Shown: one piece after another, positions 56,767-64,000 of the stretch
How positions within the stretch are numbered: the stretch's first letter is position 1
Layout: the number at the start of each line of letters is the position of its first letter
Assembly: GCA_044358225.1 (NCBI GenBank)
Contig: JBIKOG010000008.1
Location: 15,595 to 79,594, forward strand
Length of the DNA: 64,000 bases
Direction of reading: 5' to 3'
From: Bryobacteraceae bacterium
GTDB taxonomy: Bacteria > Acidobacteriota > Terriglobia > Bryobacterales > Bryobacteraceae
Program-made: the position numbers and the translations under genes
Notes under the pieces: generated by a model
What the model was told of the DNA's origin: nothing
The model's database searches: none
The model's input: the letters and a program-made list of their open reading frames with translations, nothing else

Positions 56767-57675
56767 ATGGCCGTCCCAACCTACGAGAAGTTCATCGACC
56801 CCATACTGCGGTACCTGGCCGCCCACCCCGAAGGCGCGCCAGCTCGCGACGTTCACGAGGCCGCTGCGGTCGCCCTTCAAATCTCCGATGCGGACCGCCA
56901 ACAACTCCTTCCAAGTGGAGTGCAGACCGCCTACAAAAACCGCGCCGGCTGGGGCCACGACCGTCTAAAACGCGTCGGCCTTTCCATTAGCCCGCGCCGC
57001 GGCGTCTGGCAACTCACGCCAAAGGGAATCGAGTTCGCCCGCCAGAACCCGCCCCCCCTCTCTCGCGAAGTCATCGCCGGAATGGCTGCCACCGCCAGCG
57101 AAGTGCGCCTCACTGACCCCCGCGAACCCGAAGCCGCTCCCATCCCCGAAGACCGAATAGCCACCCCCGATGAACGCCTCGGCGAAGCCCTCGCCGAACT
57201 CCGCGCCGCCGTCGTCCGCGAACTCCGCGAAACCCTCGCCAACGTCTCACCCACCTATTTCGAAACCATCGTCCTCGACGTCCTCCACCGTCTCGGCTAC
57301 GGCGCCAACCGCTCCGACCTCCAACGCGTCGGCGGCACCGGCGACGGCGGTATCGATGGCGTCATCTCCCTCGATAAACTCGGCCTCGAAAAAGTCTACG
57401 TCCAAGCCAAGCGCTGGAAAGACTCCGTCGGCCGCCCCGAAATCCAAGCCTTCTACGGCGCCCTCGCCGGCAACCGCGCCCGCAAAGGCGTCTTCATCAC
57501 CACCTCCGTCTTCACCCAACAAGCCCTCGATTTCGCCCGCTCCGTCGAAGGCATCGTCCTCGTCGACGGCCCCCGCCTCGCCGAACTCATGATCGACTAC
57601 GAAATCGGCGTCACCGCCCGCACCCTCAAAATCCCCAAGCTCGATAGCGACTACTTCGACGAAGAATCCGCCTGA
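56767..57675 (+). CDS. mrr: Mrr-type (type IV) restriction endonuclease
   Basis: Mrr_N 'VPTYEKFIDPILRYLAAHPEG'. Catalytic core 'GGTGDGGIDGVISLDKLGLEKVYVQAKRW'. Confidence 0.85.
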   Translation: MAVPTYEKFIDPILRYLAAHPEGAPARDVHEAAAVALQISDADRQQLLPSGVQTAYKNRAGWGHDRLKRVGLSISPRRGVWQLTPKGIEFARQNPPPLSREVIAGMAATASEVRLTDPREPEAAPIPEDRIATPDERLGEALAELRAAVVRELRETLANVSPTYFETIVLDVLHRLGYGANRSDLQRVGGTGDGGIDGVISLDKLGLEKVYVQAKRWKDSVGRPEIQAFYGALAGNRARKGVFITTSVFTQQALDFARSVEGIVLVDGPRLAELMIDYEIGVTARTLKIPKLDSDYFDEESA

Positions 57676-58817
57676 CCCCCCGCCCGCCCAAACAACACCG
57701 CCGCCAACACCGCCACCCCCACCAATACCCCCAACACCTCCCCATACCCGCCCGCCCAAGCCAACAGCAACGAAGCCAAAAACGGCGCCCCCGCCCGCGC
57801 CAGCGTCGCCGGCGCCGCCAACGCCCCGCTCACCTGCGCATACTGCTCCCGCCCAAACAACTCAACAACAGCCACACTCCGCACGATCGTCATAATCCCG
57901 TTCGCCATCCCATACACCCCGATCGCCAGCAACAACACCCCCACCGGCACAGGCCGCAGCATCAACAAAATAAGCGCCGGCACGAACGCCGCCAGCGACA
58001 ACACCCCCGTCCGCCGCGCGCTCCAATTCGCCCCATACCGGAACTCAATCAGCCGCCCCACCACCTGCATCGGCCCCGCCACCGCCGCCATCCACGCCGC
58101 ATGCTGCAACGTCGCCCCCTTGGCCTGCAACAACGGCACCAGATGCACCGACACCACCGAAAACACCGTCGCGTACATCGTCAAACTCCCCGCCAGTAAC
58201 AGGAACCGCCGCTCCCGCACCAGCCCCGAAATCCGCACCGGCGCCTGCGCCACCGCCCCCACCACTGCCGGCAACCCAAACCAGTGCAACGGCAAACAAA
58301 CCAGCAGATGCAATAAAGCGTAAACCACCAACGTCCCCTGCCACCCCGCCCACACCACCATCCGCTCCGTCAGCGGCCAAAACACCGTGCTCGCAAACCC
58401 GCCCGCGAACGTCACGAACGTCACCGCCCGCTTATAATCCCCCGCATAAATCCCCGCCAGCGCCGCAAAGGCAGGCTCATACAACGTGCCCGCCATCGCC
58501 AGCCCAGCCAACGCCCAACCCGCATAAAACCCCAACAAAGTAGGCGAAAACGCCACCACCAGCATCGCCCCCGGCCCCACCACGGACCCCACGCTCATCA
58601 CCACCCGCCCCCCAAACCGCTGCATCAATTTCCCCGCCGGATACGCGCAAATCCCACTCACCAACAGGGCCACCGAAAACGCCCCCACCATCTCCGCCAC
58701 GCCCCATCCATGCCCGGCGCCAATCGCGCCGAGCAACACCGAAAAGGCGTAATAAAGCGTGCCCCAGCTCAACACCTGCGTCACGCACAACACCCACACC
58801 GGCAGCCAGTAGCTCAT
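57651..58817 (-). CDS. MFS transporter (last gene of the arsR operon; ArsK/ArsJ-like role possible)
   Basis: 12-TM MFS layout. ATG 58817 lies in an ATGA overlap with the flavoprotein stop. The 3' end overlaps mrr convergently by 25 nt. Confidence 0.75.
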   Translation of the reverse strand: MSYWLPVWVLCVTQVLSWGTLYYAFSVLLGAIGAGHGWGVAEMVGAFSVALLVSGICAYPAGKLMQRFGGRVVMSVGSVVGPGAMLVVAFSPTLLGFYAGWALAGLAMAGTLYEPAFAALAGIYAGDYKRAVTFVTFAGGFASTVFWPLTERMVVWAGWQGTLVVYALLHLLVCLPLHWFGLPAVVGAVAQAPVRISGLVRERRFLLLAGSLTMYATVFSVVSVHLVPLLQAKGATLQHAAWMAAVAGPMQVVGRLIEFRYGANWSARRTGVLSLAAFVPALILLMLRPVPVGVLLLAIGVYGMANGIMTIVRSVAVVELFGREQYAQVSGALAAPATLARAGAPFLASLLLAWAGGYGEVLGVLVGVAVLAAVLFGRAGGQADSSSK

Positions 58818-60055
58818 CCGCAACAAGCCCCCGCCGGCTGCCCGCAGCACCCACCCGTCGGCTTCACCTCACAACACGGCTCCCCCTTCGGCGCAAACCC
58901 GCAAACGCCCGTCTCCGGCAACTCCAACTCCACCGCGTCCGCCGCCGCCAAATCCCCCGCCAGCGCCGCCGTAATGGACCGCACCTGCTCATACCCCGTC
59001 GCCAGCAAAAACGTCGGCGCCCACCCGTAGCTCTTCACGCCCGCCGTATAAAACCCCGGCTCCGGATGCGATAACTCCCGATGCCCATGCGGCCGCACCG
59101 TCCCGCAACTATGCACGCTCGGATCAATCAGCGGTCCCAACGCCGCCACCGAATCCAACCCCGGATACAACCCCAGCCGCAGCCCCGTCGTCATCGTCAA
59201 ATCCGGCCGCTGCCCCGTCGCGCAAATAATCTCGTCAATCCCCTCAATCCGCCGCCCGCCGCCGGAAACCGTCAACGTCTCCCCCACGCGTTCCACCCGC
59301 TCCACCACGAAGTCCGTAACCAGCTGCAACCCGCCCATCCGCGCCTTCTCCCGCAGCATCGTCCCCAGCTCTCCCCGGGCAGGCAGAGCATCTTTCACCC
59401 CACCCCCAAACACCCGCCGCGGCTCACCACCCCGCACCGCCCAAACAACATCCCCCGTCAGCGCCAACAAGCTATTCGCCGCCGAATGCCCAGCCCCCAC
59501 CACCAAAACTCTCCGCCCCCAATACCGCTCCCGCAAAGCCCCCGCCACATCCGGAATCCCATAGAAAATCCGGTCGGCGTTCTCCCGTTCACCCGCCGCC
59601 CCCAACCCATTCGGCGTCCCCCAAGTCCCCGTCGCGTCAATCACAAAACGCCCCCGCATCTCCCCGCCGGCAAACCGCGCCACAAACCCCATCCCCTCCC
59701 GCGCCACCGCCGTCACCCGCGCCCCAAAAACAATCCGCCCCGCCATCTCCGGCACCGCCGCCAGCGGCTCCAAATACCGCGTCACCATCTCCCCCGCCGT
59801 CGGCAAGCCATCCGCCTCCGGAGCCTTCCACCCTTGCGCCGTCAACAGCGCCGCCGAAGCCCTGTCAACGTTGTACCGCCACGGCGAAAACAGCCGCACA
59901 TGCGCATACTCCCGCATGCTCCCGGCCACCGCCATACCAGCCTCCAGCACAATCGGGGAAAGCCCCCGCGCCAGCGCATGCGCCGCCGCCGCCAGCCCCA
60001 CCGGGCCCGCGCCCAGAATCAAAACATCAGCTTGAGAAAACGTTGGAATATTCAT
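58814..60055 (-). CDS. FAD/NAD(P)-binding oxidoreductase (flavin monooxygenase / ArsO-like) with Cys-rich C-terminal tail
   Basis: ATG 60055. 'DVLILGAGPVGLAAA' and 'VLVVGAGHSAANSL' dinucleotide motifs. Tail 'GVCGFAPKGEPCCEVKPTGGCCGQPAGACCG'. Confidence 0.75.
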   Translation of the reverse strand: MNIPTFSQADVLILGAGPVGLAAAAHALARGLSPIVLEAGMAVAGSMREYAHVRLFSPWRYNVDRASAALLTAQGWKAPEADGLPTAGEMVTRYLEPLAAVPEMAGRIVFGARVTAVAREGMGFVARFAGGEMRGRFVIDATGTWGTPNGLGAAGERENADRIFYGIPDVAGALRERYWGRRVLVVGAGHSAANSLLALTGDVVWAVRGGEPRRVFGGGVKDALPARGELGTMLREKARMGGLQLVTDFVVERVERVGETLTVSGGGRRIEGIDEIICATGQRPDLTMTTGLRLGLYPGLDSVAALGPLIDPSVHSCGTVRPHGHRELSHPEPGFYTAGVKSYGWAPTFLLATGYEQVRSITAALAGDLAAADAVELELPETGVCGFAPKGEPCCEVKPTGGCCGQPAGACCG

Positions 60056-63833: not shown

Positions 63834-63895
63834 CCTCCAGATATGCTCCCTCGCGCCATGCCCGTCCATTCCAACTGTCTGGTCACACCCGCCGC

Positions 63896-64000
63896 GTGAA
63901 ACCAGCCCTCATTCTCTCCTCCACCGCCGCTCCCGGCATCACCCTCGAATCGATCACGTCTGAGCACCTCGAACTCCTCCGCCTCTGGAAGAACAACCAT
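63896..64000 (+). CDS. 5' end of an unidentified gene (runs off the window)
   Basis: GTG 63896, then 34 GC3-rich codons (VKPALILSSTAAPGITLESITSEHLELLRLWKNNH). Faint GNAT-like N-terminus only. Confidence 0.3.
   Translation, partial: MKPALILSSTAAPGITLESITSEHLELLRLWKNNH

Follow-up and report, generated by a model that had tools for sequence, protein, structure and literature searches.

The systems closest to the locus described here are the canonical arsRDABC and arsRDA-acr3 operons, the arsR-arsV/flavoprotein-arsK cassettes of Rhizobiaceae and other soil bacteria, the ECF238 group of extracytoplasmic function (ECF) sigma factors and the ArsR repressors with a two-cysteine site. The locus itself is an arsenic resistance (ars) cluster in a 64,000-nt stretch of DNA (hereafter the window) from a Bryobacteraceae bacterium, in which arsR and the genes for a SigZ-like sigma factor, a Cys-tailed flavoprotein and a major facilitator superfamily (MFS) permease diverge from an arsM::arsD fusion gene and arsA. 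The type member of the ArsK permeases exports arsenite (As(III)), Sb(III), methylarsenite (MAs(III)) and trivalent roxarsone (Rox(III)), while ArsV, reportedly first described in Ensifer adhaerens, is said in the title of a cited paper to be widely present in soil bacteria. ArsV is an NADPH flavin monooxygenase which oxidises MAs(III), Rox(III) and Sb(III) and makes cells resistant to them, and it is MarR-regulated (bioRxiv 10.1101/2021.08.12.456183). The ECF238 sigma factors, which include SigZ, CorE and CorE2, have no anti-sigma factor and are thought to be switched via a Cys-rich extension, and the members characterised so far respond to Cu, Cd and Zn (PMC7826278, PMC8999054, PMC6851896). 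With regard to ArsR, the site of AfArsR uses C95, C96 and C102, and SpArsR of Shewanella putrefaciens is an MAs(III)-selective repressor with a two-cysteine site (PMC11868830).

The locus shares features with each of these systems and departs from all of them. Like the canonical operons (R773 type, as well as the acidobacterial arsM::arsD-arsA-acr3 arrangement found in L009-L011; compared loci are designated here by L numbers), it possesses ArsR as repressor and ArsD and ArsA with intact metalloid-binding Cys residues and ATPase motifs, but it is devoid of ArsB, Acr3 and ArsC, its ArsD is fused to ArsM, and the whole is divergently coupled to a putative oxidase/permease cassette. The arsR-flavoprotein-arsK cassettes have the same gene order, a flavoprotein of the same family (44-46% identity) with a Cys-rich tail and an ArsK-family MFS whose gene is joined to its neighbour by overlapping stop and start codons; in the window, however, arsR is separated from the flavoprotein gene by a sigma factor gene and the associated promoter, and the MFS, which is 29-35% identical to plasmid-borne proteins named ArsK by the NCBI Prokaryotic Genome Annotation Pipeline (PGAP), scores below the ArsK cut-off. 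The flavoprotein is likened to the published ArsV through gene context. The sigma factor resembles CorE, CorE2 and SigZ in its minimal sigma2-sigma4 architecture with a Cys-rich extension of about 30 aa, in having no anti-sigma neighbour and in not being obviously autoregulated, but its linker lacks a CxC motif, its gene forms part of an ArsR-controlled ars operon, and its presumed ligand is a metalloid. Like SpArsR as described in PMC11868830, the ArsR of the window has its vicinal Cys residues at the C-terminal end and lacks a third Cys; in Acidobacteria, repressors of its type normally go together with arsM.

Genes were identified from a list of open reading frames (ORFs) combined with Pfam and NCBIfam profile searches. 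On the evidence presented below we consider it rather likely that this locus is a working, evolutionarily maintained arsenical-detoxification cluster of an uncultured lake-water Acidobacterium, with two arms governed by one short control region, an assessment that applies jointly to the control region, both arms and the proposed history. The most fitting reading of the cluster is protection from trivalent arsenicals, with emphasis on methylarsenite. Its new elements are the sigma factor with its own promoter, the ArsM::ArsD fusion family and a retained orphan ArsA. The features of the locus are as follows:

57651-58817, minus strand: ArsK-like MFS efflux permease, 388 aa; best NCBIfam model ArsK
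58814-60055, minus strand: Cys-tailed FAD/NAD(P)H flavoprotein, 413 aa; Pfam Pyr_redox_3
60071-60096, minus strand: TGCGTCC-N14-CGTCT, a putative promoter for the ECF sigma factor, located 15 nt upstream of the ATG of the flavoprotein gene
60104-60616, minus strand: ECF238/SigZ-like sigma factor, 170 aa; matches SigZ models below their cut-offs
60618-60950, minus strand: ArsR repressor, 110 aa; NF033788 above cut-off
60951-61025, both strands: divergent control region with overlapping sigma-70-type promoters
61000-62157, plus strand: ArsM::ArsD fusion, a single ORF of 385 aa; ArsM and ArsD models above cut-off
62148-63833, plus strand: ArsA ATPase, 561 aa; TIGR04291 above cut-off

An initial annotation of the window, made from the sequence alone, had placed arsR, the sigma factor, the flavoprotein and the MFS on the minus strand and arsM::arsD and arsA on the plus strand, and the ORFs together with the Pfam and NCBIfam matches bear out this gene set, its strands and its order. 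The comparison of gene order that it had proposed reveals the same six-gene layout in L089, with 85-98% protein identity gene by gene, and in L091 (GCA_964430625.1), with approximately 55-80% identity and the same SNF2/DUF418 neighbourhood. The usual acidobacterial layout is arsR-arsM-(arsC)-acr3. Nothing resembling acr3 or arsC follows arsA in L089 or L091 when searched by tblastn, and, because this layout recurs in both loci and the ArsA motifs are intact in L091, it is maintained rather than decaying. At least 20 lake-water metagenomes also contain the locus, as do JGI contigs that were assembled independently. A look-up of the exact fusion protein yielded matches confined to contigs of 1.7 kb, and the closest genome contigs retrieved with this protein belong to metagenome-assembled genomes of Acidobacteriota, including Bryobacterales, Bryobacteraceae and Terriglobia.

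The initial annotation had further claimed that every accessory protein carries vicinal cysteines and had regarded these as a peculiarity of the locus. Such pairs occur in four of the six proteins, ArsA and the MFS having none, and each motif turned out to be a hallmark of its whole protein family. The enrichment of CC pairs is nonetheless real even though the motifs are family-wide: the six proteins contain 8 pairs in 2027 residues, where 0.22 would be expected if 18 other long window ORFs are taken as the standard (Poisson p ~1e-10) and 0.64 if the Cys content of the locus itself is used (p ~4e-7). The pairs are C94-C95 in ArsR, which contains no other Cys; C144-C145 in the sigma factor, accompanied by C165 and C170; those at 394, 403 and 411 in the flavoprotein tail, preceded by C385; and those at 30, 277 (plus C283) and 384 in the fusion protein, which correspond to the canonical N-terminal pair of ArsM, the Cys12/13/18 set of ArsD and the C-terminal pair of ArsD.

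The control region, ArsR and the sigma factor

The two arms are separated by a pair of overlapping promoters, P(arsM) (TTGACG-17-GATTAT, 60965-60993, plus strand) and P(arsR) (TTGACA-17-CATAAT, 61025-60997, minus strand), which are the sole sigma-70-like promoter sites in 6.6 kb, where 0.6 would be expected, and the core of this region, TTCTGTATTTCTGCGAnnATCGAAnTATG, is kept as far as L091. As P(arsM) ends 7 nt before the ATG at 61000, a leaderless arsM::arsD mRNA is suggested. ArsR matches NF033788 with 73 bits against a cut-off of 55, and its two cysteines lie in the motif FLYAECCTR; exactly these two Cys residues are found in 63 of 70 acidobacterial ArsR homologues, and the third Cys of an AfArsR-type site is absent from the ArsR of the window. 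Because C94-C95 constitutes a two-thiol site, MAs(III) is a likelier ligand than As(III), and by analogy it is more probable that this repressor senses the methylated species. ArsR would sit on the back-to-back promoters at 60951-61025 and would be released upon binding of a trivalent arsenical.

The sigma factor gene starts with GTG, 1 nt past the arsR stop codon, and its product consists of the Pfam sigma2 (r2) and sigma4 (r4) domains alone, followed by a Cys-rich C-terminal extension of the form CC-x19-C-x4-C. A tail of the type CC-x~20-C-x2-4-C is present in nearly all of 95 homologues. The linker that joins sigma2 to sigma4 contains no CxC motif, all four Cys residues being located at 144-170, and for this reason the protein is SigZ-like rather than CorE-like. 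No anti-sigma gene adjoins the sigma gene in any of five sigma-bearing locus types. Wherever a homologue shares at least 55% identity, the flavoprotein-MFS pair comes after it, and this triad occurs without arsR in L094 and after arsR-arsC in L095, while more distant SigZ-like sigma factors (L096 and L097) are encoded in contexts unrelated to arsenic. In the literature searched, no report was found of an ECF sigma factor in an ars operon or of an arsenic-linked ECF sigma factor.

A conserved target promoter in front of the flavoprotein gene had been overlooked in the initial annotation. It became apparent by aligning the DNA between the sigma stop codon and the flavoprotein start from five loci, which revealed the motif TGCGTC(C/T)-N14-CGTCT with fixed spacing and a variable spacer sequence. 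The 64 kb window contains it just once (60071-60096, minus strand), as compared to 0.03 expected, and among 100 loci the motif is confined to the seven that bear the sigma factor (L089-L095), always before the flavoprotein gene. Judged by this distribution, the motif is a phylogenetic footprint of the predicted regulon of the sigma factor.

The leftward arm would produce ArsR together with a sigma factor that, by analogy with CorE and CorE2, should need no anti-sigma factor; ligand binding to its four-Cys extension would switch it, enabling it to drive the flavoprotein and MFS genes from TGCGTCC-N14-CGTCT, and the outcome would be a feed-forward, double-checked induction. A more specific version of this scheme, which we put forward as a tentative possibility, is that the SigZ-like sigma factor acts as a one-component metalloid sensor, in which As(III) or MAs(III) bound to the CC...C...C arrangement licenses transcription from TGCGTCY-N14-CGTCT and which, together with ArsR, forms a two-key feed-forward circuit for the oxidase, the pump and, in relatives, a Cys-rich arsenic-buffering peptide.

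The peptide refers to a second copy of the motif, TGCGTCT-N14-CGTCT, which in L094 (5907-6137, minus strand) and L095 (8752-8984, minus strand) precedes homologous ORFs of 55 aa. These are 42% identical, carry three CC pairs and a terminal CGC and resemble the flavoprotein tail, and the one in L095 has not been called as a gene; from their sequence and position they are candidate sigma-controlled arsenic-binding peptides. No stand-alone Cys-rich peptide of this kind is present in the window, where the sole weak match is the tail of the flavoprotein itself. In the unrelated Acidobacteriota locus L097 (6797-7114, plus strand), a SigZ-like gene is followed by a gene for a CC-rich protein of 105 aa without Pfam match (ACCPTT...CCPPSECCPPACCPPACC), an arrangement that may point to a broader connection of SigZ-like sigma factors with small Cys-rich proteins. 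L095 also contains, near its sigma cassette, a second ars-like unit (103-3262, minus strand) that encodes ArsR, Thioredoxin_3, a protein with a DGC domain, two proteins without known function and an ArsP_1 permease.

The flavoprotein and the ArsK-like permease

The minus-strand unit had been considered atypical. However, its arsR-flavoprotein-MFS core is widespread in Proteobacteria, Actinomycetota and Bacillota. It occurs without the sigma factor on plasmids of Nitrobacter hamburgensis, Hydrogenophaga, Streptomyces sp. F8, Ensifer adhaerens E-60 and Rhizobium rhizogenes; in Streptomyces sp. F8 it adjoins true ArsO and Acr3, and in the latter two organisms PGAP names the MFS of the cassette ArsK. 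On a Bacillus cereus plasmid the flavoprotein gene comes after arsR and before arsN1. A plasmid of Pseudomonas nitroreducens encodes a homologue, 49% identical by BLASTP and with the same triple-CC tail, between arsN1 and arsD-arsA, adjoined by a MarR gene and a homologous MFS.

The flavoprotein belongs to a family of at least 8000 homologues, many of which are fused to an ArsN2 acetyltransferase domain. An exact-sequence look-up of the protein of the window from its TTG start retrieved no record. Its invariant motifs are HSCGTVxPHG and LPxTGVC, followed by the tail CC-x7-CC-x6-CCG; CC pairs are found after LPxTGVC in nearly all of 120 homologues, with CCG as the usual ending. Its identification as ArsO was rejected, given that NF040505 matches the N-terminal half only, with 54 bits where the cut-off is 425; on pFRL5, this flavoprotein family is found alongside a true ArsO. 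The cassette context, that is, the Ensifer operon and the MarR neighbour on the Pseudomonas plasmid, suggests that the protein is probably an organoarsenical oxidase of the ArsV kind. With its flexible CC-CC-CCG tail the protein would capture trivalent arsenicals and deliver them to the flavin site, where they would most likely be oxidised to the less toxic pentavalent form by chemistry similar to that of ArsV and ArsH.

The MFS has NCBIfam ArsK (NF033733) as its best model, matched over the full length with E=9e-58, and its ATG overlaps the flavoprotein stop codon (ATGA). Homologues of the MFS gene come after the flavoprotein gene in L089, L091, L094, L095, L098-L100, L102 and L103. As in L102 and L103, the gene of the window follows that of the Cys-tailed flavoprotein directly within an ArsR-controlled operon, which is the placement of arsK, and its product is expected to export arsenicals. 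Together with ArsM and the two-Cys ArsR, an ArsK-family MFS and a flavoprotein encoded between arsR and arsK lend support to the initial interpretation that the locus handles methylated or organo-arsenicals.

The ArsM::ArsD fusion, ArsA and the missing pump

Both domains of the fusion protein score above their cut-offs, ArsM with 355 bits (NF008823, cut-off 263) and ArsD with 114 bits (NF033727, cut-off 90). In the numbering of the 385-aa protein, the ArsM domain possesses catalytic-type Cys residues at C30/C31 (SCCSSD), C60 (LGCGNP), C148 (STCVINL) and C198 (WVGCVAG), which on motif context we take to be the counterparts of C44, C72, C174 and C224 of CmArsM, as well as the S-adenosylmethionine-binding glycine motif LDLGSGGG, while the ArsD domain shows MCCSTGVC (Cys12-Cys13-Cys18 type) and a terminal CC. 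A start of the fusion at 60949 was discarded in favour of 61000, as L006 has stop codons among the 17 codons upstream and L091 starts at the equivalent ATG. A single ORF encodes the fusion in the window and likewise in L089, L091 and L008-L012. Four river metatranscriptomes yielded RNA contigs (95-99% alike) that span 61170-62123, including the ArsM/ArsD junction, and, although these contigs are short and lie over arsM::arsD alone, they demonstrate that the fused gene is transcribed in situ.

Fusions of this type occur in L007-L012, followed by arsA and then acr3 in L009-L011, directly by acr3 in L007 and L008, and by arsA without acr3 in L012. A CMD/AhpD-like domain and a CC tail are added in L008-L011, and in the database approximately 100 protein clusters contain both ArsM and ArsD domains, about half of them with CMD. 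The resulting tri-domain ArsM-ArsD-CMD/AhpD-like proteins (L008:10001-11600, L009-L011 and about 50 clusters) are ~474-500 aa long and carry a CxxC motif and a terminal CC...CC tail; one of them is named merely 'ArsD' by NCBI.

ArsA scores 752 bits with TIGR04291 (cut-off 650) and has both P-loops, both DTAPTGH motifs and the Cys113/172/422-type triad; its start overlaps the arsD stop by 10 nt. The ArsA of L091 is 69% identical and keeps all motifs, and acr3 is likewise absent there. In the rightward arm, the ArsD domain would capture trivalent arsenic on its CC-x4-C and pass it to the ArsM active site or to ArsA.

No match to Acr3, ArsB, three ArsC types, ArsH or ArsN1 was obtained by tblastn (E<=1e-3) in the 64 kb window or in L003, a JGI contig which encodes the exact ArsA protein and reaches 4.9 kb past it; the reference proteins came from the Pseudomonas nitroreducens plasmid (Acr3, two ArsC types, ArsH and ArsN1) and from E. 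coli K-12 (ArsB and ArsC). The initial claim that the window lacks ArsB, Acr3 and ArsC is therefore confirmed. An acr3/arsB/arsC block beyond arsA, named beforehand as part of what would speak against an atypical locus, was looked for in L003, L089 and L091, and none is present. The locus consequently departs from the canonical arsRDAB(C) and arsRDA-acr3 operons both in Acr3/ArsB (tblastn in the window, L003, L089 and L091) and in ArsC, for which three types were tried. What did not stand is its description as pump-less, since the MFS belongs to the ArsK family of efflux permeases. In terms of history, the acr3 gene that comes after arsA in sister lineages would have been lost from the cluster, leaving the ArsK-like MFS as the sole permease under local control.

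The plus-strand gene after arsA (63896 onwards), which the initial annotation had listed as an unidentified member of the unit, is indeed present, but it is not an ars gene. In L003 the region downstream of ArsA encodes a 187-aa protein with a marginal GNAT match, a sulfotransferase, a GT8-like protein, a DegT aminotransferase and a PHP-like protein, so that the DNA past arsA is a neighbouring glycan-modification cluster. ArsN was considered for the GNAT-like gene and rejected, as it has no tblastn match to ArsN1, just a marginal one to Acetyltransf_3, and lies in a glycan-cluster setting.

Further observations concern orphan arsD-arsA genes elsewhere and the surroundings of the locus. On plasmid pOLGA1 of Paraburkholderia phytofirmans (L086:5601-7734), arsD-arsA has no arsB or acr3 nearby and is flanked by a SulP transporter and an MBL-fold/ArsR/YeeE cluster. 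A gene for an Mrr-family restriction endonuclease (56767-57675, plus strand) lies between the DUF418 and MFS genes in the window and in L089 and is missing at the syntenic position of L091, whose MFS gene directly adjoins DUF418-SNF2; this has the appearance of a recent insertion beside the ars locus. Strand compositional asymmetry is extreme across the window (1-64000), and strongest at 39000-64000: on the plus strand, GC skew lies between +0.22 and +0.33 in the first 16 kb, passes through zero at ~16-24 kb and falls to -0.40 at the right end. The skew follows the DNA strand and not the coding strand, because at third codon positions it amounts, in plus-strand terms, to ~-0.76 to -0.81 in genes of both orientations (the ars locus and the Mrr gene). 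Neither dnaA nor other replication genes were found around the switch in skew at 16-26 kb.

Alternative explanations and significance

Several observations weigh against the proposed scheme. The sigma factor remains below the equivalog level in both SigZ models (TIGR02959, 145.5 bits against 168.65; NF007215, 147.5 against 212), and there is no copy of the motif upstream of the sigma gene itself, likewise not in front of the sigma gene of L094, nor elsewhere in the window, even with one mismatch allowed. The sigma step is also dispensable, since both the sigma and the flavoprotein gene have disappeared from L006, a relative with 97% identity, which yet retains arsR-MFS. Here (L006:1835-1915, compared with 58780-58860 and 60590-60660 of the window) the arsR stop overlaps the MFS start (GTGA), a state that fits a precise deletion between two ...G-TGA junctions which left arsR translationally coupled to the MFS gene. 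The MFS reaches 196 bits with the ArsK model, below the equivalog cut-off of 400, and ArsA is not known to have a partner besides ArsB or Acr3. For the flavoprotein, the AlphaFold2 model (mean predicted local distance difference test score, pLDDT, of 76) is poor at residues 281-319 and 381-413, and hence unreliable around the invariant Cys317 and the tail. An oxidase role of this protein is weakened by its predicted structure, which is as close to disulfide reductases as to monooxygenases, and by the absence of the canonical motif of flavin-containing monooxygenases (FMOs), FxGxxxHxxxY, from its sequence.

Two alternatives concern individual components of the leftward arm. The flavoprotein could be an NAD(P)H-dependent dithiol/arsenical reductase that reduces As(V), MAs(V) or arsenic-thiol adducts for export by the MFS and thereby replaces ArsC, with a C-terminal CCG arm that would work as the redox-active tail does in large thioredoxin reductases, or as the two Cys residues do at the C-terminus of MerA. 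Such a role is suggested by the best structural matches of the model, which are the bacillithiol disulfide reductase Bdr/YpdA and thioredoxin reductases, by a weak NCBIfam match to YpdA, by the invariance of Cys317 and Cys385 and the near-universal CC-G/R ending of the family, by the lack of ArsC in the locus and by the trivalent nature of the known ArsK substrates. On the other hand, Foldseek places small FMOs about equally close in fold, the circumstantial links favour ArsV, a monooxygenase, and the cassette adjoins at least one arsC in L095, L098, L100 and L103 and therefore cannot be a general substitute for ArsC; we regard a reductase as unlikely. Similarly, the sigma factor might not be an arsenic sensor, either because its extension binds Zn, Cd or Cu or senses thiol oxidation, as in CorE, CorE2 and ZAS-type proteins, or because it is constitutive and arsenic specificity comes from ArsR alone. 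The metal responses of the characterised ECF238 members, the non-arsenic settings of the distant relatives in L096 and L097 and the triad without arsR in L094 are consistent with this, whereas all loci with this sigma subclade (at least 55% identity) have the arsenic-linked pair of flavoprotein and MFS as its target and the CC...C...C arrangement suits trigonal As(III) coordination, which makes a sigma factor indifferent to arsenic somewhat improbable.

A broader alternative is that ArsD and ArsA serve an Acr3 or ArsB pump, together with ArsC, encoded elsewhere in the genome, in which case the locus would be a piece of a distributed ars regulon and the missing pump would be functionally meaningless. 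To this we assign a little less than an even chance; it is compatible with most of the explanation favoured here and competes just with the part in which the pump has been replaced. Precedents exist, since arsD-arsA without an adjoining pump also occurs on the Paraburkholderia plasmid and in L012 and L038, several ars clusters are common in acidobacterial genomes (for example L008, L050, L066 and L068), and every motif for As(III)-stimulated ATPase activity is kept in ArsA. Against it stand the lack of Acr3 or ArsB within 64 kb upstream and 4.9 kb downstream, the retention of the pump-less layout down to ~60% protein identity and the presence of acr3 in the same cluster in seven of nine other acidobacterial arsA loci examined. 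A bolder addition to the proposal of a one-component sigma sensor would be that the ArsA retained here in the absence of Acr3 and ArsB has the fused ArsM::ArsD or the ArsK-like MFS as its partner instead of a classical pump.

Taken as a two-armed detoxification cluster, the locus places in a defined circuit two widespread ars components that are nameless in genome annotation, namely the Cys-tailed flavoprotein family and the ArsM::ArsD(::CMD) fusions. The comparisons described above show the gene identities, the conserved layout, the spread of the cassette across phyla, the exclusive association of the promoter motif with the sigma factor and the family-wide Cys motifs; from these we infer what is bound as ligand, which way the flavoprotein reaction runs and what ArsD-ArsA does. 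The retention of ArsA without its known partners questions the view that this ATPase energises just ArsB or Acr3. If the proposed sensing by the sigma factor is true, this would be the first arsenic-responsive sigma factor and would extend the CorE paradigm from metals to metalloids, and if arsenicals are sensed directly, the sigma factor and its promoter would constitute a compact orthogonal pair for arsenic biosensors. The two-Cys ArsR dominates acidobacterial arsR-arsM operons, and, if it is MAs(III)-selective, many operons assigned to 'arsenite methylation' may be defences against the antibiotic methylarsenite, a view that, if true, bears on how the abundance of arsM in lakes and paddy soils is to be read.

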